Source: Minisyncoccota bacterium (GTDB taxonomy: Bacteria > Patescibacteriota > Minisyncoccia > Phycocordibacterales > GCA-2747955). Taken from it: a stretch of DNA of 56,871 bases. The notes under the pieces are model-generated. The model worked only from the letters and a program-made list of their open reading frames with translations. It searched no databases and was not told where the DNA came from. Positions 14,245 to 56,735 of this stretch are shown in pieces. The stretch's first letter is position 1, and each line of letters starts with the position of its first letter. The translations under genes were made by a program, and so were the position numbers. Where the stretch lies: assembly GCA_937958705.1 (NCBI GenBank), contig CALGNJ010000007.1, positions 1 to 56,871 of the forward strand. Reading direction: 5' to 3'.

Positions 14245-14484
14245 TCATACTGCTTGCTCCTGCCTAAGATATTTAATATTAAGCTTGCTGATGGATTCTG
14301 CTCTTTTGATAAGTCCGCAGTTAATCCAATCAATCATCTCTTGATGTTTTTCATGGCTAGATTTTGTCATATCCATGGTTAATTTTCCACCAAATATGAT
14401 GGCGCTCTCACGATCTTTTCCAGCCACCAACTGAACCATAGCCACCTGGTCTAAGCCACAATACTCAAAGATGAATTCAAACAT
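14245..14484 (-). CDS. Hypothetical small protein
   Basis: ORF followed by a terminator. No recognisable motif. Confidence 0.4.
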   Translation of the reverse strand: MFEFIFEYCGLDQVAMVQLVAGKDRESAIIFGGKLTMDMTKSSHEKHQEMIDWINCGLIKRAESISKLNIKYLRQEQAV

Positions 14485-14507
14485 CTTTGCATTACTTCGC
14501 TCGGATT

Positions 14508-14609
14508 CTATACTTCACTCTTTGAAAGAAGAGTGCCGGCCTCACACCTGCTTGAAAGATCAAGAAGGACATCTTTTTGCTTACTCATTATCTCTTTAAG
14601 TGTATACAT
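14508..14609 (-). CDS. Possible 33-aa micro-ORF (MYTLKEIMSKQKDVLLDLSSRCEAGTLLSKSEV)
   Basis: aaggag SD 7 nt upstream of the ATG and a TATAAT-like box upstream. The region also folds into two hairpins, so it may be RNA instead. Confidence 0.25.
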   Translation of the reverse strand: MYTLKEIMSKQKDVLLDLSSRCEAGTLLSKSEV

Positions 14610-14716
14610 GTTTTACTCCTTTTGTTGCTTCAAATTTTATTATACAACAAACTTGTGAAAAAACAATATCTATGTTTTCTATTTGTATCGATCTAAATTT
14701 CTTAAATGAGATGTAT

Positions 14717-14800
14717 TTCGAGGAGACAAGAGAAAATCCACCAAGTCGTACAAATGTACGGTGAAGGTGGATTTTCTCGAAGGCAACAAAGAAAGACGCT
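14717..14800 (-). repeat. ~85-nt hairpin repeat, copy 2, immediately 3' of the pepA stop
   Basis: 13-bp outer stem (14730-14742/14766-14778) enclosing the cgtacaaatgtacg hairpin. About 80% identical to 16737-16820. Confidence 0.8.
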
Positions 14801-14812
14801 CATTTTAGGGAT

Positions 14813-16189: not shown

Positions 16190-16225
16190 AATTTTTTCTA
16201 ATTTGGTAGTAATCCGGAAGTCTCC

Positions 16226-16639
16226 CTAGAATAACATTTTTCCTAAAACGAATATAATGATCCAAGCACTTGTAGAAACAAGTCCGCTGATCATAAGTAC
16301 CTGCTTCTCTTTTCTTGATAACTCCTTAAATGGTTTTTCAAAAGAAAGATGCATATGTTTACCAATCAGATATGCATTAATAACTAACATGGCTACAAAA
16401 AACATCTTTGTGCCAAATACATAATTTTTAAAGAGTGCCTCGGTTCCATATCCGTAGGCCATATACCCGCCCGTGAGGATCATCCCGACAAGACCAATAG
16501 ATACAAGCCAGTGTAATACTGTAAAAAGTTTCTTTGAAAGTTGTTGCTTTCTTCCAAGCAGCCAAAGTAGTCCGTTAAAGTCTGAAAAAATAATGACTAA
16601 GATTGTAAGAGATAAAATTGTGAGATGGATAGTTAACAT
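16226..16639 (-). CDS. Membrane protein (4 TM), unknown function
   Basis: ATG at 16639 lies downstream of a terminator. The longer tracked ORF runs through non-coding elements. Confidence 0.6.
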   Translation of the reverse strand: MLTIHLTILSLTILVIIFSDFNGLLWLLGRKQQLSKKLFTVLHWLVSIGLVGMILTGGYMAYGYGTEALFKNYVFGTKMFFVAMLVINAYLIGKHMHLSFEKPFKELSRKEKQVLMISGLVSTSAWIIIFVLGKMLF

Positions 16640-16653
16640 AAAATTATTGTAAC

Positions 16654-16684
16654 AAAAGGGTGACGCGCAAGCGTCACCCTTTTG
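16654..16684 (-). terminator. Intrinsic terminator after msrAB plus repeat
   Basis: aaaagggtgacgc/gcgtcaccctttt 13-bp stem. Confidence 0.8.
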
Positions 16685-16736
16685 TCTTTCTAGATTATTC
16701 GTAATGGAGTGTCTGTAGAGGAAAAAAGAGATAAAG

Positions 16737-16820
16737 TTCGAGGAGATAAGGGAGAATCTACGGAGTCGTACAAATGTACGGTGAGGTAGATTTTCTCGAC
16801 GGCGCCAAAGAAATTTGCTC
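16737..16820 (-). repeat. ~85-nt hairpin repeat, copy 3, immediately 3' of the msrAB stop
   Basis: Same architecture as 14717-14800, with stem changes ccacc:ggtgg to ctac:gtag. Confidence 0.8.
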
Positions 16821-16824
16821 TTTT

Positions 16825-34429: not shown

Positions 34430-34463
34430 GCTGGCTTTGCCGGCTTTTTCTATTCCATAAAAG

Positions 34464-34489
34464 TTCGAACTTCCTCCCATAAGGTCCAC
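34464..34489 (+). repeat. 26-nt direct repeat, copy 1 (ttcgaacttcctcccataaggtccac), embedded in a 15-bp-stem hairpin at 34463-34508
   Basis: 25/26 identical to 34819-34844. Confidence 0.85.
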
Positions 34490-34561
34490 AACAGGAGAAA
34501 GTTCGAACTAACTTAAAAGAACCCACAACTAATGCGGGTTCTTATTTTTTAAATCAAATAT

Positions 34562-34747
34562 TTAGATTACTAGGCTTGCTTTTTTAATACTGCGCCCAAC
34601 AAACCCATTAGGTCTTTCCTTTTTCTGGATGTAGCCTGATGCTTCGAGTGCATCAACGAGGTCGCGCTCATCTAAGGTTAGATTATGCCAATCTCTTCCA
34701 GCGAAGATATTTGCTGCAAGGATCAATGCTTGCTCTTTCTTTTTCAT
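34562..34747 (-). CDS. Hypothetical 61-aa protein
   Basis: aggagaaag SD, TTGACA-17-AATAAT promoter and a terminator at ~34517-34550. Confidence 0.55.
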   Translation of the reverse strand: MKKKEQALILAANIFAGRDWHNLTLDERDLVDALEASGYIQKKERPNGFVGRSIKKASLVI

Positions 34748-34818
34748 CTACTTTCTCCTAATTTAAAATGGATTTGTATTATTTAACTTATGCGAGAATT
34801 TGTCAATTGCTTGCCCGA

Positions 34819-34844
34819 TTTGAACTTCCTCCCATAAGGTCCAC
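34819..34844 (+). repeat. 26-nt direct repeat, copy 2 (tttgaacttcctcccataaggtccac)
   Basis: 25/26 identical to copy 1. It lacks the 3' hairpin arm. Confidence 0.85.
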
Positions 34845-34871
34845 TTCTCTTTTATTTGTTACAATTACCTC

Positions 34872-41562: not shown

Positions 41563-41601
41563 AATATATAGTTTTTCTTTTGTTATCTTAATAATTTTAT
41601 T

Positions 41602-41850
41602 TTATCCTTGAAGCTTTGAAACTATCCAGAGCAACACTGCTGATCCAACTACTGCCACAAATAAGCTGTATAAATTAAATCCTGTTACTCCTTCTCCCCC
41701 GAAAAGATTAAAAATAAATCCTCCGAGCATTGCTCCTATTACTCCAATAATAATATTCCCAATGATTCCGAATTTTGCATCTTTTTTTGTAATAATTGTT
41801 GCAATCCACCCTGCTAATCCTCCTAGTATGATCCATGTAAGTAATCCCAT
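41602..41850 (-). CDS. GlsB/YeaQ/YmgE family stress-response membrane protein
   Basis: GLLTWIILGGLAGWIA...GNIIIGVIGAMLGG. Confidence 0.88.
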   Translation of the reverse strand: MGLLTWIILGGLAGWIATIITKKDAKFGIIGNIIIGVIGAMLGGFIFNLFGGEGVTGFNLYSLFVAVVGSAVLLWIVSKLQG

Positions 41851-41886
41851 ATTGTTTGTAATTAATTATTTGTAAATTTATTTTAT

Positions 41887-42087
41887 TTATAAAGTAATGC
41901 CTGTTTCTATCTCAATACCACTTTTCTTATTGGTTTCTTCTAGAAGATATAAACCTCCAACTATGATTGCACCAACGAGAAGCAATACGAGTAATACTGC
42001 TCCTACTGTCTCCCCGACCCCTGCTTCTTTGTTTTCTTGTTTCGTCATGTCATGTTTTTTTACTTTATAAATTTTTAATGTATTCAC
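41887..42087 (-). CDS. Small single-TM protein
   Basis: ORF with one hydrophobic helix, first gene of the co-directional cluster. Confidence 0.45.
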   Translation of the reverse strand: MNTLKIYKVKKHDMTKQENKEAGVGETVGAVLLVLLLVGAIIVGGLYLLEETNKKSGIEIETGITL

Positions 42088-42155
42088 AGTATAACGTACA
42101 AAACGTACATTTACAACAGATTGAACAATATAGACATTTTTTACTTCTCCACATA

Positions 42156-42184
42156 TTGTACATTTTGTACATTACATATATACT
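42156..42184 (+). promoter_or_regulatory. Promoter (TTGTAC-17-TATACT) overlapped by two TGTACA hexamers; putative Phd/YefM operator
   Basis: tgtacattttgtaca at 42157-42171. The -10 box ends 8 nt before the ATG. Confidence 0.55.
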
Positions 42185-42192
42185 AGTGAGTA

Positions 42193-42411
42193 ATGAGTGA
42201 AAAAGAAAATAACAATATTGAATATAGAAAAGCAACAGACATTAGAAATCACTTTCAGGATACTATTGATTCTGTTCACTACACAAAGACCCCTGTGGTA
42301 ATAACCAAGAGGAACAAACCATGGGCCATGATAGTTCCCCTTCCTGAAGCTCAATCAGCCGCGACAGAAATTATTGAAGAAGTTGTTGAGAGTGTTGAGG
42401 AAAAAATGTAG
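42193..42411 (+). CDS. Phd/YefM-family type II antitoxin (no adjacent toxin)
   Basis: RNHFQDTIDSVHYTKTPVVITKRNKPWAMIVPL and an acidic C-terminus. Confidence 0.8.
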   Translation: MSEKENNNIEYRKATDIRNHFQDTIDSVHYTKTPVVITKRNKPWAMIVPLPEAQSAATEIIEEVVESVEEKM

Positions 42412-42449
42412 TGTAATAAAAAACTGCCAAAGGCAGTTTTTTATTACAC
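42411..42449. terminator. Bidirectional terminator with an 18-bp stem
   Basis: gtgtaataaaaaactgcc/ggcagttttttattacac. Confidence 0.85.
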
Positions 42450-42456
42450 TCTCTTG

Positions 42457-51037: not shown

Positions 51038-53857
51038 TTATTGCTGTTGTAAGAGATGTATAGCTTCTTGTAGCTCTTTAATTTCTTTTTGTTGCTGTTT
51101 TGTTACTTCAAGTAATGGGACAACCAACTGCGCATAGTCGACAGCCTTATACCCATCACTACCAGTCACTACCGCTTCGGGATAGAGAGCTTCTACCTCT
51201 TGGGCGATCACTCCAAAATCTTTCTCACCAGAATCTTTCCAGAAGAACTCGTAAGTACCTACATCCATAATGTCTCGTGCACGATTTGCAAAGCTAGCAA
51301 ATCTGGTCTTAAGCCGTCTGTCAGAAGAGTAGATAAATGCATCAGCAGAAGCATCACCGTCTACATCAAGTTCGTATGATGCCGAAGTTGCCCCAATCGC
51401 AACATTATCACCATCTATATAAGTTGTTGCACCTCCATCTGTCCACAAGCCAGAACCTGATAATAAAGGTCCTAGGTCGACTGTCTGTGCCACCTCACCA
51501 TCATCTTCGAGAGAAAGAGAAAGTGTGTTTCCAGAAAGAGAGAAAGAGTCAATTGTTTGATCATCAGAACCAGCGCTTGAGAATAAACTCGATAAATCAA
51601 CTGGTGTTCCATCTCCTGTTAATGAAAGCGTTGAGCCAGAGAGAGACAGATCTTGCGCATCAGTATTATCTAATAACGAAGCGAGCGAGACTGTCTGTGC
51701 CACCTCACCATCATCTTCGAGAGAAAGAGAAAGTGTGTTTCCAGAAAGAGAGAAAGAGTCAATTGTTTGATCATCAGAACCAGCACCTCCTGCTACTGCT
51801 GTTGCAATATCATTCGCTGTTGAACAATTAGTTCCATTCTGATCACAATATTCTGTGGCTCCGACTCCTCCCTCAATGTCGAGCCTTAGGGTTCCATCTG
51901 GAGTTGGGTCTCCGATTCCAACAGAACCACTAGACTCAATCACAAATTCAGGTCCATTTCCATTTGCTAACGAAAAAGAGTTATTAATCTTGTACGAATC
52001 GTCAGTCCCATCAATCCCAGCTGACCAGAATCTTGCAGCTGCTCCTGTTCCGGTTCGATACAGAGAAGAAGCATCTCTAGTTCCTGTATTATCATTTGTG
52101 TATGCGTAAAATCGTGAAGATAATGTGGTTCCTACAGCATCCACACTAACAGTTGACCCGTCATTAGAATAGAAGCTCGTAGCACTACCATTAAACGAGA
52201 AGGCTAAATTATTATCAGAGAAAAATTGTAAAACACCACTACTACTTTGGCGGATTCCCGTGTCTGAATCACCAAAAGCAAGGGCCTTCCCATTATCAAA
52301 TGTGTTTGCTGGGATTGCCCCGATTCCAACAGAACCTCCGGAAATATATAGGTCTGAGGCATCGTCTAGCGTTAAGTCGAGTCTTGACCCTCCGTTACCC
52401 CACCCTAAATATCCACCTCGTGAACCTGAAGCATCTGTAAAGTTTATATATCCATAATTACTTTCACTTGAAGATCTGGAAAATATCTGTCCATCTGTTC
52501 CACTCAGCACAACATTACCGTCTATCAAAATACCCCCGTCAAATATACCGGCGCCTGATGCTCCAAGAGTTCCAACTCCTGCGATATTATTTCCGTTCAT
52601 ATTCAAGTTTTGTGTTGCTGTGTGATTTCCTAAATCATCCCCAGATGCTGCATTTGCAATCTGAGCTGCAGTTGAACAGTTTAGTCCTGATCCGTCACAA
52701 TAGCTTGTTGCAGCAATATTTCCTGCAACATCTAAGAGTGCACCTCCATCTGGGTCTACATCCCCAATACCTACAGCACCTCCAGTTATATAAAATATGT
52801 CTGCAGTATCTAGTCGCAAATCAAGCCTGTCAGCACCATTACCAAACCCAATATACCCACCCCTATCTTCAGTACTATCTAAAAAGTTTAAATACCCATA
52901 AGTCGACGGGTTCTGGGACTGCACCCATATTCGATCTCCAGTTCCACTCACGACAACTCGATTATTATCAGCAACAAGACCTCCTTGTGCTCGTACCGGT
53001 CCTGTTGTAACAAGACTCAATGCTCCAAGAATTGCGTTACCATTTAAATCAAGAGATTGTGTTGCTATATGATTTCCTAAATTGTCTGCAGAAACAGCTG
53101 CAGAGCTAAAACAGTTTAATCCATCCTGATCACAATACTGAAACGCACCGACCCGCCCTGCAACATCTAGTCGTAGTCCGGGAGATGAGCTTGTAGCACC
53201 AATAGCTACATTCCCTGAGGATCTATACACATTCCCTGAGCTCTCTGACCAGAACCCTATATCTCCAGTTGGTGGATTTGCATCAGTCACGACCGTATCT
53301 GCCGTAAAACAATTTGTCCCGTTCTCATCACAGTACTCCGTTGCTCCAACTAATCCCTCAACATCAAGCTGGAGCCCAGCACTCGGAGTAATGTTTGCCC
53401 CCACCCCCACTTGTCCATTTGCTTGTATCAGAAAACGACTAGCAGGCGTAGTCCCAGTAGTAAACACAAAGTCACCTGAGTCGCCTGTATTCCTAAAAGA
53501 AAAGGTATTCCCCGTAGTATTATTAATATTTGGTGATCCTGTACCGAAAAAGTTTATTTCAAAGGCATTTGCCCCATCTGTATTAATATTTAAACGATTA
53601 TTGAACGTGGTTGTACCCTGAAAAATAGAACCTCCATTGACAATCAGTGATCCGAGAGAAATACCCCCTGTCTTTACTTGTCCGGTGGCAGAATCGTTTA
53701 ATGGAGGATTAGTATTGCCCCCTGGAGCTGCTTGTGTTGGGTTATTCCATGCAGCCTGTATAACCGATGCTCCCGACAAAGCAGCCATCAATACAATTGC
53801 TATCCCAACAGCCGGCTTGATTGTTTGCTTTAGAAGTGTATTTGTGAGGGTATTCAT
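51038..53857 (-). CDS. Large secreted tail-fibre-like protein with a C-terminal peptidase-S74 intramolecular chaperone domain
   Basis: Signal peptide after Met at 53857, four YCDxxGxNC modules, DDQTIDSFSLSGNTLSLSLEDDG repeats and a C-terminal SDRRLK...GVIAQEVE...VDY..L motif. Confidence 0.85.
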   Translation of the reverse strand: MNTLTNTLLKQTIKPAVGIAIVLMAALSGASVIQAAWNNPTQAAPGGNTNPPLNDSATGQVKTGGISLGSLIVNGGSIFQGTTTFNNRLNINTDGANAFEINFFGTGSPNINNTTGNTFSFRNTGDSGDFVFTTGTTPASRFLIQANGQVGVGANITPSAGLQLDVEGLVGATEYCDENGTNCFTADTVVTDANPPTGDIGFWSESSGNVYRSSGNVAIGATSSSPGLRLDVAGRVGAFQYCDQDGLNCFSSAAVSADNLGNHIATQSLDLNGNAILGALSLVTTGPVRAQGGLVADNNRVVVSGTGDRIWVQSQNPSTYGYLNFLDSTEDRGGYIGFGNGADRLDLRLDTADIFYITGGAVGIGDVDPDGGALLDVAGNIAATSYCDGSGLNCSTAAQIANAASGDDLGNHTATQNLNMNGNNIAGVGTLGASGAGIFDGGILIDGNVVLSGTDGQIFSRSSSESNYGYINFTDASGSRGGYLGWGNGGSRLDLTLDDASDLYISGGSVGIGAIPANTFDNGKALAFGDSDTGIRQSSSGVLQFFSDNNLAFSFNGSATSFYSNDGSTVSVDAVGTTLSSRFYAYTNDNTGTRDASSLYRTGTGAAARFWSAGIDGTDDSYKINNSFSLANGNGPEFVIESSGSVGIGDPTPDGTLRLDIEGGVGATEYCDQNGTNCSTANDIATAVAGGAGSDDQTIDSFSLSGNTLSLSLEDDGEVAQTVSLASLLDNTDAQDLSLSGSTLSLTGDGTPVDLSSLFSSAGSDDQTIDSFSLSGNTLSLSLEDDGEVAQTVDLGPLLSGSGLWTDGGATTYIDGDNVAIGATSASYELDVDGDASADAFIYSSDRRLKTRFASFANRARDIMDVGTYEFFWKDSGEKDFGVIAQEVEALYPEAVVTGSDGYKAVDYAQLVVPLLEVTKQQQKEIKELQEAIHLLQQQ
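51479..51574. repeat. 96-bp exact repeat unit 1 inside the tail-fibre-like gene
   Basis: Identical to 51689-51784, period 210 bp, in frame. Confidence 0.9.
51689..51784. repeat. 96-bp exact repeat unit 2
   Basis: Identical to 51479-51574. Confidence 0.9.
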
Positions 53858-54143
53858 GATGTAGAAAAAACTAACGAGAATCAGGCGCATAACATAACTA
53901 GTAGGTATACTGCCGATTTGTAATATGTATTTTATAATACGTTTTTTAAAGTTTGTTTGCAATACAAAGGGTGAGTAACTACCTACATAACCCTGTCAGA
54001 AAATGAATTGTATTTTTTATAAAAATTGATATGATGTATCTATAGTTACGTTCACCTTTTGGTGGGCGTTTCTCTTTATCACTCAAAGAAAATGGTGCGA
54101 AGGCTTTGCCTTCGCACCCACATAACAATATAAATATAGAACC

Positions 54144-55469
54144 ATGTTCGATTTAAAACAAATACATCTAGTACTTGCTCAACTAGAAGAAGAAAAAGGA
54201 GTAAAAAAAGACCAAATCATTGAAGCAATTGAATCTGCTCTTGCTTCAGCATACAAAAAAGAGTTTGGTAAAAAGGGACAACTAGTCACCTGTTCATTCA
54301 ACTTTGAAACAGGTGAAACTGATTTTAAACAAGTAAAGAAAGTAATGGACCCAGAAATGGTTCTTATGATTGAAGAAGACGAAGCGATGCCAGAACAAGA
54401 ACACCTTGCTGAAGAAGACCGAAAAGTGCGATTTAATGCTGAGCAACACATGTTTGTAGAGCAAGCCAGGCTTATCAAGGCTGATGCAGCAATCGGAGAT
54501 GAACTTATCTTCCCACTTGAGAACAAAACTGACTTTGGACGAATCGCCGCGATGACAGCAAAACAAGTAATCATCCAAAAAATTCGTGAAGCCGAGAAAG
54601 GATTCTTGTCTGAGAAGTTTGGAGACAAACAAGGAGAGATTGTTTCTGGAACAGTTCAGCGAGTTGAGAGAGGAAACATCTTCGTTGATCTTGGAAAAGC
54701 AGAAGGATCTATTCCCTTTGCAGAACAGATTAAATCAGAGCGATACAAAACAGGTGACCGGATCTCTGGATACCTATTTAATGTAGACGATGGTGGTCGT
54801 GGAGTGTTCTTGCGAGTTTCGCGTACTCACCCACAATTTTTACAAAAACTTTTTGAACGAGAAGTGCCAGAATTACTAGAAGGAACTATTGAAATCAAAG
54901 GAATAGCACGTGAGCCAGGATTCCGTTCAAAGGTTGCTGTATTTTCAACTGATCCAGAAGTAGACCCAATTGGTGCACTAGTTGGTCAAAACGGATCACG
55001 AGTTCAAACAGTTACATCAGAACTGTCTGGAGAACGGATCGACATTATCGAGTGGTCAGAAGACATGGATGACTTTATCCGTCAGGCTCTATCACCTGCT
55101 GAGATTTTGAATGTTGAAATTACAGAATCAGGAGATGACAAACTTTGTAAAGTACAAGTTGCTGAAGACCAATTCTCTCTCGCGATTGGACGAGGTGGTC
55201 AGAATGTCCGCCTAGCAGCACGACTTACTGGGTTCAAGATTGATATTGAACAATTAGACGCAATGGGAAATGTTATTGACCAAGAAGCACGTAAAGCTGA
55301 GCGTGAAGCTGAGCGAGTTGCGGCCGAAGCATCTGAAGCTGACGCACAAGCAAGTGCAGAGGTTGAAGAAGAAATGCCAACAGAAGACACCGTTGATACT
55401 GAGTCTGAGATTACAGAAACACTCGTTGCTGATTCAGCACCTGAAGTATCTGAAGATAATGTTGCGTAA
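54144..55469 (+). CDS. nusA: Transcription termination/antitermination factor NusA
   Basis: N-terminal domain, S1 (GEIVSGTVQRVERGNIFVDLG), two KH domains and an acidic tail. Confidence 0.95.
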   Translation: MFDLKQIHLVLAQLEEEKGVKKDQIIEAIESALASAYKKEFGKKGQLVTCSFNFETGETDFKQVKKVMDPEMVLMIEEDEAMPEQEHLAEEDRKVRFNAEQHMFVEQARLIKADAAIGDELIFPLENKTDFGRIAAMTAKQVIIQKIREAEKGFLSEKFGDKQGEIVSGTVQRVERGNIFVDLGKAEGSIPFAEQIKSERYKTGDRISGYLFNVDDGGRGVFLRVSRTHPQFLQKLFEREVPELLEGTIEIKGIAREPGFRSKVAVFSTDPEVDPIGALVGQNGSRVQTVTSELSGERIDIIEWSEDMDDFIRQALSPAEILNVEITESGDDKLCKVQVAEDQFSLAIGRGGQNVRLAARLTGFKIDIEQLDAMGNVIDQEARKAEREAERVAAEASEADAQASAEVEEEMPTEDTVDTESEITETLVADSAPEVSEDNVA

Positions 55470-55607
55470 CAAATATGTGAGGCGAATGCCGAAACATAAT
55501 TTGTATACGCAACTTACGTCAAATTAATTAAAATAATGAGTGTAACGAATATATTTTAATAATTGTGACGAGAGTTGAGCTAGAAATAAAAAAGAGCACA
55601 TAACATA

Positions 55608-55638
55608 AAGAGCGGGCCTTCGGCCCGCTCTTTTTGTC
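55608..55638 (+). terminator. Intrinsic terminator (agagcgggcc-ttc-ggcccgctct plus T-run)
   Basis: Same stem as 26792-26822. Confidence 0.8.
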
Positions 55639-55792
55639 CCCAACTTTTTTAAACGTTTCTTTTCTTTGACCAAACAAGCCCCGTTCGAGCATATCTTAAT
55701 CTCAAGAATAATTTAATCTTCTGCTCTGGATGCTCTATACACCTAGATACATATAGCAAACTTAGATTAAATTTATACCACGAATTAAATAC

Positions 55793-55821
55793 TTGACAAG
55801 TTTATTTTTTTCGTATATACT
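55793..55821 (+). promoter_or_regulatory. Consensus sigma-70 promoter TTGACA-17-TATACT
   Basis: -35 box at 55793-55798, 17-nt spacer and -10 box at 55816-55821. Confidence 0.7.
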
Positions 55822-55828
55822 CTTTCTT

Positions 55829-56150
55829 GATGAGAGCGGTTCGCGCCTCATCTGTGACCGTATGGTCGATTTTGAAAGGTAGTATCATGAAAAACGGCAA
55901 GTTCACCGAACCAATCACGGACACGTTCCGTTCCGGTAGTTTCAACCCACTTTTTCTTTCTTTGACGGGTCCGGCCGGCGCAGTCGCAATGGCGGCAGAC
56001 GCTGAGCCCGACAATCCCGGCGCAGGCGGCGTCACCTTCGGTTAACGCGCAATGAGCGCAAGGAGAAAATACTTACTCGAGGCTAGTAACCTCACGTTGA
56101 CTCTTGCACGGTCAACACAGAAAGCTCTACTATCCAGTGGGGCTTTTTTC
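55829..56150 (+). ncRNA. Unidentified GC-rich transcription unit: a structured ncRNA candidate, or alternatively an mRNA for a 52-aa Gly/Ala/Pro-rich peptide (55887-56045)
   Basis: 5' hairpin GATGAG..CTCATC. 58 of 78 nt are G/C in 55964-56041. Several GC hairpins. Weak terminator agctc/gggct plus T6. Confidence 0.4.
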
Positions 56151-56166
56151 TTATAAAAATTTTCTT

Positions 56167-56175
56167 TGCTATAAT
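56167..56175 (+). promoter_or_regulatory. Extended -10 element TGCTATAAT for ppa
   Basis: Read directly from the sequence, ~36 nt upstream of the ATG. Confidence 0.5.
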
Positions 56176-56210
56176 CTTTCCATTATATAACCTTTCTAAA
56201 TAAAAGACCC

Positions 56211-56735
56211 ATGAACCTACTACACGATATTCCAGCTGGTACACCCGACGTCATGAACGTTATCATCGAGATCCCAAAAAACTCAAAGAATAAATACGAA
56301 ATTGACAAAGAAACAGGGATGATTGCCCTAGACCGTGTAATGCACACAGCACAAGACTATCCATTTGATTACGGATTTGTACCACAAACATTATTTGATG
56401 ATGGTGATGCTCTTGATGTAGTAGTTATGACTACCTATCCGCTCGCTCCAGGAATCTTAGTGCGATGTCGTCCAGTAGCAATCATGGGAATGGTCGACGG
56501 AGGTGAACAAGACGACAAAGTTATCGCGGTTCCAACCGATGACCCCAGATTTGATGAAATTACTGATCTTGCCGACCTTAACAAACACTTCTTAAAAGAA
56601 ATGGAGCATTTCTTCGCAACGTACAAAAAGATTCAAAATAAATCCGTTGAAGTAACTGGTTTCAAAGGAAGATCTGAAGCAATGAACGCATTTGAAAAAT
56701 CAGTAGAAATGTACAACAACGATAAAAGCTCATAA
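56211..56735 (+). CDS. ppa: Inorganic pyrophosphatase (family I)
   Basis: YPFDYGFVPQT..DDGDALDVVV and GEQDDKVIAV motifs. Confidence 0.95.
   Translation: MNLLHDIPAGTPDVMNVIIEIPKNSKNKYEIDKETGMIALDRVMHTAQDYPFDYGFVPQTLFDDGDALDVVVMTTYPLAPGILVRCRPVAIMGMVDGGEQDDKVIAVPTDDPRFDEITDLADLNKHFLKEMEHFFATYKKIQNKSVEVTGFKGRSEAMNAFEKSVEMYNNDKSS

Follow-up and report, generated by a model that had tools for sequence, protein, structure and literature searches.

What is encoded in the short interval between nusA and ppa on contig CALGNJ010000007.1 of a Minisyncoccota bacterium, a member of the Patescibacteria, or candidate phyla radiation (CPR)? In this place a unit of about 320 nucleotides (nt) begins with a near-consensus promoter, passes through a strikingly GC-rich core and ends in a terminator-like hairpin, and it could be read either as an RNA gene or as a gene for a short peptide. 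We analyzed the full 56,871-nt stretch that contains it (hereafter the window; coordinates given without a locus name are window positions). The results make it highly probable that the unit is a genuine accessory cassette, autonomous and probably expressed, found in few lineages and seated in an insertion hot spot, and not a housekeeping noncoding RNA (ncRNA). As to its product, we tentatively favor a messenger RNA (mRNA) for an orphan small peptide, with stabilizing hairpins at both ends.

The evidence for an insertion comes from comparison with relatives. We gathered about 120 related loci of Patescibacteria through NusA and Ppa scans of genome and metagenome contigs, and inspected all nine members of the 90%-identity Ppa cluster to which the window belongs. 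By its NusA and Ppa proteins the window falls among the Patescibacteria, with Paceibacteria-like metagenome-assembled genomes; an exact search for its own Ppa gave no record. Of the related loci, 83 have nusA and ppa side by side. The spacer between the two genes is no longer than 142 nt in 61 of these 83, and the remaining 22 spacers hold 244 to 2015 nt of mutually unrelated cargo, which includes orphan secreted proteins, a ParD antitoxin, small basic proteins and units resembling small RNAs (sRNAs). Specifically, one or two orphan secreted-protein genes lie in the spacers of L001, L105, L106, L112 and L114-116; L026 carries on its minus strand (1252-1533) an orphan ParD/RHH (ribbon-helix-helix) antitoxin of 93 amino acids (PF03693, E = 1.7e-9) in a spacer without a toxin gene; and L117/118 and L120/121 have further small units, preceded by consensus promoters, in their spacers. 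At the other extreme, L025 (Ppa 87% identical) and L113 show an empty site, in which the nusA terminator is directly followed by the ppa promoter TGCTATAAT. This promoter sequence is kept in most of the close relatives that we read, the empty-site loci included, and occurs as the variant TGTTATAAT in L001 and L112. Between the window and L001, blastn homology breaks off where nusA ends and is found again from 56139 onward. Given that some relatives have an empty site and others have differing cargo, we conclude that this spot is a hypervariable insertion site. Every cassette found in it, coding or not, carries its own near-consensus TTGACA promoter. Because protein-coding cassettes also carry such promoters, the strong promoter of the unit is no argument for an RNA gene. 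When the unit was compared by tblastx and blastn with the cargo genes and units of the relatives, only promoters matched.

The features of the unit and of its borders are collected in Table 1. The −35 hexamer TTGACA occupies 55793-55798 and the −10 hexamer TATACT occupies 55816-55821, with 17-nt spacing, which would place the start of transcription near 55828. The arms of the first stem-loop, GATGAG and CTCATC, lie at 55829-55834 and 55847-55852. The core is the most GC-rich 78-nt segment of the window (runner-up, 51/78; window mean, 40% GC), and the direct repeat within it, CCGGCGCAG(T/G)CG, occurs at 55975-55986 and again at 56017-56028, 42 nt apart. A simple terminator scan raised no flag on the hairpin and T6 at 56120-56150. 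The initial annotation of this locus, made from the sequence alone, had described a near-perfect promoter, a stable 5′ hairpin, a GC-rich segment with two copies of ccggcgcag, a closing hairpin followed by T6, and an extended −10 box belonging to ppa itself; all of these proved to be present as described. Other alleles of the unit can be sought with ACTTGACAAGTTTNNTTNNNNNCNTATATACTCT and with the 3′ block TCGAGRCTRGTNAYCTCAYGTT.

Table 1. Elements of the nusA-ppa unit and of its immediate borders, in window positions.
Feature	Positions	Strand	Evidence or remark
nusA intrinsic terminator, bidirectional-looking GC hairpin	55607..55633	+	Left border of the inserted segment; conserved in L025, L108, L106 and L114
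Extra segment relative to empty-site relatives, ~510 nt	55638..56143	+	Comparison with L025 and L113; blastn homology with L001
Sigma-70-type promoter, TTGACA-17-TATACT	55793..55821	+	11/12 consensus positions; best promoter-like site of the region
5′-terminal stem-loop, GAUGAG.GCG/CGC.CUCAUC	55829..55852	+	-13.1 kcal/mol, z = -3.9 against shuffles
Second 5′ hairpin, GACC-N4-GGUC	55856..55867	+	z = -3.6
Shine-Dalgarno-like GAAAGG, 7 nt upstream of ATG	55874..55879	+	Read from the sequence
Open reading frame (ORF) of 52 amino acids, MKNGKFTEPITDTFRSGSFNPLFLSLTGPAGAVAMAADAEPDNPGAGGVTFG, plus stop	55887..56045	+	ORF list, Shine-Dalgarno sequence, frame-specific codon usage
GC-rich core, 58/78 G/C, entirely within the 52-residue ORF	55964..56041	+	Holds both copies of the direct repeat
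3′ hairpin A, GAGG-N7-CCUC	56079..56093	+	z = -2.0
3′ hairpin B, GUUGACU/GGUCAAC	56096..56116	+	z = -2.8
Terminator-like hairpin (56120-56147) plus T6 (56145-56150)	56120..56150	+	-14.5 kcal/mol, z = -3.7
ppa extended −10 promoter, TGCTATAAT	56167..56175	+	Outside the unit; forms the right border

The search for homologs of the unit covered the nusA-ppa loci of the relatives. Neither nhmmer nor blastn found a homolog in the first 104 loci, and over the whole set of about 120 loci nhmmer found one only in L108 (with L109-111) and in L107. In L108, the promoter hexamers and the 17-nt spacing are identical to those of the window and stand in the same transcription-start context, with 7 of the 17 spacer bases changed. 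The 5′ stem occurs at the matching place with one compensatory pair, and the GACC/GGUC stem is identical with a different loop. On the 3′ side of these hairpins, AGAGG lies 8 nt before the ATG of a 23-residue ORF, MNHSKAPRRGIILAIAIIGGVAG, which is followed by hairpins and a terminator. The L107 contig starts inside the unit, and in it the 3′ 75 nt of the window's unit plus the ppa promoter are matched at 71% identity. There, hairpin A reads GAGA/UCUC for GAGG/CCUC, with one compensatory pair, hairpin B reads GUUUAUC/GAUAAAC where the window has GUUGACU/GGUCAAC, and the terminator is kept with two compensatory pairs and one change from G-U to C-G; in all three stems, hairpin B included, the changes are compensatory. 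The middle of the unit is not reliably alignable among the three alleles and shows only short similarities (E = 0.3-4) that are partly non-collinear. Since the ppa genes of the three lineages are themselves only 83-86% identical in DNA, such a loss of alignability is expected in weakly constrained sequence. The hexamers, their spacing and the terminator have been retained while the unconstrained promoter spacer diverged, which points to selection for expression.

The promoter is shared more widely than the rest of the unit. An upstream block, AAATTTAT..CAC..TTGACAA, is common to the promoters of the window, L001 and L106, and in the latter two loci it stands before units of about 500 nt whose transcribed part is unrelated to that of the window and contains no conserved ORF. 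Taken together, the promoter in L108, the promoter module in L001 and L106 and the terminator in L107 support the autonomous promoter-to-terminator unit that had been proposed for this locus. A contig-specific insertion, an outcome that the initial annotation had counted against its own proposal, is nearly the case, given that outside this contig the GC-rich body occurs, in part, in L107 alone. We also considered a conserved ORF C-terminus in the window and L108, GGCGGCGTC..GGTTAAC, and dropped this candidate as weak (E = 0.32) and non-collinear with AACCCAC..TTGACGG. A blastn search in 'distant' mode against phages and plasmids gave chance matches only, and pattern scans of viral contigs found nothing. 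On the minus strand, we observed a weak divergent promoter-like site, TTGTCA-18-TAAATT (55799-55770; 9/12 consensus positions), which overlaps the −35 hexamer of the unit. The conserved block upstream of the −35 hexamer in L108, L001 and L106 would provide the same minus-strand −10 element, so that the sequence makes a bidirectional promoter possible at this point.

To characterize the transcript that such a unit would produce, we compared its folding energy with that of shuffled sequences and searched for known RNA families. The minimum free energy (MFE) of the whole unit was marginally better than that of shuffles for the plus strand (z = -1.9) and no better for the minus strand (z = -0.4), and the GC-rich core (55960-56060) folds no better than shuffles (z = -0.54). 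The terminal hairpins reach z = -2.0 to -3.9, and stable hairpins are limited to what would be the untranslated regions (UTRs). Given its structured ends and unstructured core, the unit resembles an mRNA in its layout. The pairwise comparisons showed three compensatory pairs in the 3′ hairpin and terminator between the window and L107, and one in the 5′ hairpin between the window and L108; both this covariation analysis and the coding tests below are underpowered, resting on two or three alleles and on pairwise alignments only. Rfam cmscan at gathering thresholds found three tRNAs only in the whole window. A relaxed scan (E ≤ 10) of 55450-56300 found nothing at the unit beyond terminator-like chance matches, and an Rfam search of 18 related loci gave only tRNAs and terminator-like chance matches. 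ARAGORN found no transfer-messenger RNA (tmRNA) in the window. The Rfam and ARAGORN results agree with the initial annotation, which could not match the unit to the signatures of tmRNA, ribonuclease P (RNase P) RNA, signal recognition particle (SRP) RNA or 6S RNA.

Next to an RNA gene, a 52-residue peptide had been suggested as the alternative product, and part of our evidence makes it plausible. The Shine-Dalgarno (SD) sequence and the ATG are correctly spaced in both full-length alleles (GAAAGG-7 nt-ATG in the window and AGAGG-8 nt-ATG in L108). The codon usage of the ORF is gene-like and frame-specific: the in-frame codon log-odds are 0.28 per codon, compared with -0.35 and -0.62 when the ORF is read in its two other frames, where the reference values are 0.40 ± 0.17 for the genes of the window and -0.79 for off-frame windows. 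The in-frame score was reached by 0.2% of stop-free shuffles and by 5.6% of the 40-90-residue ORFs in the window. The predicted peptide, which contains the segment ADAEPDNPGAGGVTFG, is acidic (net charge -2) and mildly hydrophobic, with a maximum Kyte-Doolittle (KD) score of 1.22 over 19 residues, and is not membrane-like. The 23-residue peptide of L108 has a basic N-terminus followed by a hydrophobic stretch (KD over 11 residues, 3.03).

Several observations weigh against a peptide as the product. Neither the length nor the sequence nor the character of the peptide is conserved between the window (52 residues) and L108 (23 residues), and the open frames of L107 encode unrelated sequences. What similarity the alleles show internally is weak and in part non-collinear, and one indel in the comparison with L107 has a length that is not divisible by three. 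The promoter and the UTR ends are better conserved than the putative coding region, a pattern that fits an RNA at least equally well. The GC content at third codon positions (GC3) of the ORF is 0.63, compared with 0.34 for the genes of the window. We found no homolog of the peptide of the unit: the search of 5.8 billion proteins, made with a 72-residue ORF, gave no match, and scans of all candidate ORFs on both strands against Pfam and NCBIfam found nothing. The sole phmmer match of the 52-residue ORF among 1.8 billion representatives, P0129 (E = 2e-4), was rejected as probably spurious; it is a five-fold repeat that scores about 22 bits per copy.

If the unit is an mRNA, its parts would work together in a simple way. 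The near-consensus promoter would start a transcript of about 320 nt near 55828, and the two 5′ stem-loops would probably shield the 5′ end of this transcript. The SD sequence GAAAGG and the ATG at 55887 would direct translation of the orphan peptide of 52 residues, and the GC-rich core would simply be its coding sequence. The two small 3′ hairpins and then the hairpin with T6 would end the transcript shortly before the ppa promoter. We infer the transcription of the unit, its translation and any function of the peptide from this arrangement. The unit resembles the lineage-specific micropeptide genes of accessory islands in having its own strong promoter, an SD sequence, a short ORF and a terminator, and also in its presence or absence among close relatives, its orphan cargo neighbors and its want of detectable homologs. 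It is unlike them in that the peptide is unconserved even among three alleles, the GC3 is foreign to the genome, and translation is putative. We read the unit as a fast-evolving cassette and, among the products considered, hold a small-peptide mRNA to be the likeliest.

It is possible, though we hold it as doubtful, that the unit is instead a non-coding sRNA of about 320 nt, lineage-specific and either trans-acting or dual-function, in which the hairpins and terminator form the scaffold and the ORF is incidental to the GC composition. In favor of this explanation, conservation between alleles is limited to the promoter, the 5′ and 3′ hairpins and the terminator and does not extend to the supposed coding body. 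High GC in an AT-rich genome is also a classic signal of RNA genes. In addition, the same locus in neighboring lineages is occupied by units that are clearly non-coding, fold strongly and have consensus promoters: the L120 unit at 1478-1620 has a z of -6.0, L117 and L120 share a unit without a common ORF, and L001 and L106 carry units of about 500 nt that have a homologous promoter and no conserved ORF. However, the folding of the GC core is no better than random and that of the whole unit is modest, no Rfam family was found, and the covariation comes from two or three sequences only. The codon-like, frame-specific periodicity and the well-placed SD and ATG in two alleles would be unexpected for a pure sRNA.

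The question of targets also bears on this explanation. The only complementarity that we found joins the SD and start region of the unit (55869-55893) to the ppa mRNA leader (56177-56201), over 25 nt at 80%. Its core, GAAAGGU/ACCUUUC, is of the SD/anti-SD type, and L108 has a weaker analog; this complementarity is probably generic and is not clearly conserved. Compared with trans-acting and dual-function sRNAs such as SgrS/SgrT, RNAIII/hld and SR1/SR1P, the unit is similar in being an intergenic segment that runs from promoter to terminator over a few hundred nt, has stable hairpins at its ends and a small ORF inside, evolves fast and shows a narrow phylogenetic range. It differs from them in having no chaperone context, no structured center, no Rfam family and, as a target, only the generic SD/anti-SD match.

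The non-coding units of the relatives deserve description in their own right. The L120 unit at 1478-1620, which is the same in L121, runs from promoter to terminator without an ORF and would give a 110-nt RNA with three hairpins; its MFE z-score is the one given above, and it has no Rfam match. A second ORF-less unit, of about 170 nt, is homologous between L117/118 (L117 2298-2490) and L120/121 (L120 1660-1850) (nhmmer E ~1e-11), again with no Rfam match. The units of L001 (6900-7410) and L106 (1420-2000) have a TTGACA-17-TATGAT promoter and no Rfam match; their conserved blocks include CCGACATCGAG, GGTGAAGAGCC and the hairpin CCGACATAAGACTCGG, and near the 3′ end the long-range hairpin GGAGACCC...GGGTCTT, which is followed by a T-run, shows compensatory changes. 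These units in L001 and L106 may be an undescribed structured RNA.

Another explanation, which we consider unlikely, is that a gene once carried by the island as cargo has been eroding, for instance from a secreted-protein gene down to its signal-peptide end, and that the unit is what remains of it, which would still be transcribed from an intact promoter and have no function. Orphan secreted-protein genes are the usual cargo of this island, the 23-residue ORF of L108 resembles a bare signal peptide, and codon-like periodicity without conservation suits a coding sequence that decayed recently. Degenerate copies of the sequence close to the ppa promoter, at 55646-55670 and inside the ORF at 55949-55966, further suggest repeated rearrangement. 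However, tblastx and blastn showed no similarity of the unit to the cargo genes of the relatives. Moreover, lineages that share only 83-86% identity in ppa have kept the hexamers, spacing, SD sequence and terminator, which argues for purifying selection on expression, and CPR genomes are compact (the window is 87% coding) and should purge dead DNA.

The degenerate copies just mentioned belong to a T-rich sequence near the ppa promoter, ..TTTCTTT(C)TTTGAC/GCT, which occurs at 55646-55670, 55949-55966 and 56151-56170, that is, after the nusA terminator, inside the 52-residue ORF and at the ppa promoter. Junctions made of a T-run plus ATAAAATTT similarly precede the unit promoters in L001, L106 and L108, and the junction sequence, a T-run plus ATAAAATTT...CTTTG, recurs at cassette borders. 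As read from the sequence, these patterns suggest that insertion or recombination took place repeatedly at a single junction sequence. It can be imagined that the spacer is a dedicated cassette site, where short, strongly promoted sRNA or micropeptide units are swapped at a fixed junction, and that the unit of the window represents a single allele of a rapidly diversifying family of small RNAs or peptides, on which diversifying selection acts, for instance through contact with a host or phage. We regard this proposal as speculative and rather improbable. Under it, the type of unit found in the window, L108 and L107 and the type of about 500 nt found in L001 and L106 may share one promoter module.

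It is very improbable that the unit is a type I toxin mRNA, that is, one encoding a small toxic peptide whose translation is checked by 5′ structure and by an antisense or divergent RNA. The unit shares with hok, ldr, ibs, tisB and zor a small ORF behind a structured 5′ UTR and a strain-variable location; it also has a strong promoter, the variable island elsewhere carries a ParD antitoxin, and the peptide of L108, which is short, basic and then hydrophobic, would fit the membrane-active peptides of these systems. The weak divergent site at 55799-55770 on the minus strand might drive the regulatory RNA, and in L108 it is readable by eye, no scan having been made there. However, the peptide of the window is acidic, only mildly hydrophobic and not membrane-like. 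No minus-strand promoter-like site was found inside the unit, no inverted repeat joins the upstream region to the 5′ UTR, and the region that a divergent RNA would span is not conserved between the window and L108. In contrast to the known systems, no antisense or divergent antitoxin RNA was identified.

Finally, a divergent housekeeping RNA (RNase P RNA, 6S RNA, SRP RNA or tmRNA) missed by covariance models, although suggested by the size class, the strong promoter, the high GC content in an AT-rich genome and the terminator, is close to refuted, given that the unit has no Rfam match at E ≤ 10 and no ARAGORN match, lies in a variable island, is absent at nusA-ppa in nearly all relatives (about 100 related loci, the close empty-site ones included), has a body that cannot be aligned among three alleles, and is unstructured in its core. 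The resemblance to housekeeping ncRNAs noted in the initial annotation had been drawn from a possible pairing of the 5′ end (AGAGC, 55833-55837) with the 3′ end (GCTCT, 56124-56128). Both sequences exist as described; the likeness is not supported, and we give the pairing of these 5 bp no weight because both halves sit inside stronger local hairpins, namely the 5′ hairpin and the terminator stem. The sequence ACAGAAAGC near the 3′ end of the unit faintly recalls the P4 strand of RNase P RNA.

Several other elements of the neighborhood were observed in the course of this analysis. Between the nusA stop codon and the nusA terminator lies a 68-nt AT-rich hairpin (55510-55577). The first ~120 nt past the nusA stop codon are about 95% identical to L108, compared with only 75% for the coding DNA of nusA, and a three-sequence alignment of the nusA 3′ region showed four compensatory pairs, three of them in the 68-nt hairpin; this region is partly duplicated in L106. 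Judging from these alignments, the hairpin may be a conserved element of the nusA 3′ UTR. Just upstream of nusA, on the minus strand (51038-53962), is a gene for a repeat-rich protein of 974 amino acids with many repeats of the type G-x-GATEYCD-x-NG-x-NC; its counterpart in L001 has 1059 amino acids. The C-terminal region of this protein may resemble tail-fiber or endosialidase chaperone domains. Further stretches of the window without an ORF of at least 90 amino acids lie at 41563-42456, 16190-16824, 14334-14812 and 34430-34871 (442-894 nt).

Full-text searches of the literature on small RNAs in Patescibacteria and the CPR yielded nothing that bears on units of this kind. Our results remove a false lead, namely that the GC-rich island might supply a missing housekeeping RNA in a CPR genome. 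They document an orphan unit that is small, very narrowly distributed and probably expressed, and that represents either a gene for a micropeptide or one for an sRNA, in a lineage whose small genes are almost uncharted. They also show that strain-specific cassettes accumulate at the nusA-ppa junction, which is thus a hot spot, and that several of these cassettes are sRNA-like units without annotation. Should these units indeed be expressed, they would count among the earliest candidates for regulatory RNAs or micropeptides in Patescibacteria.

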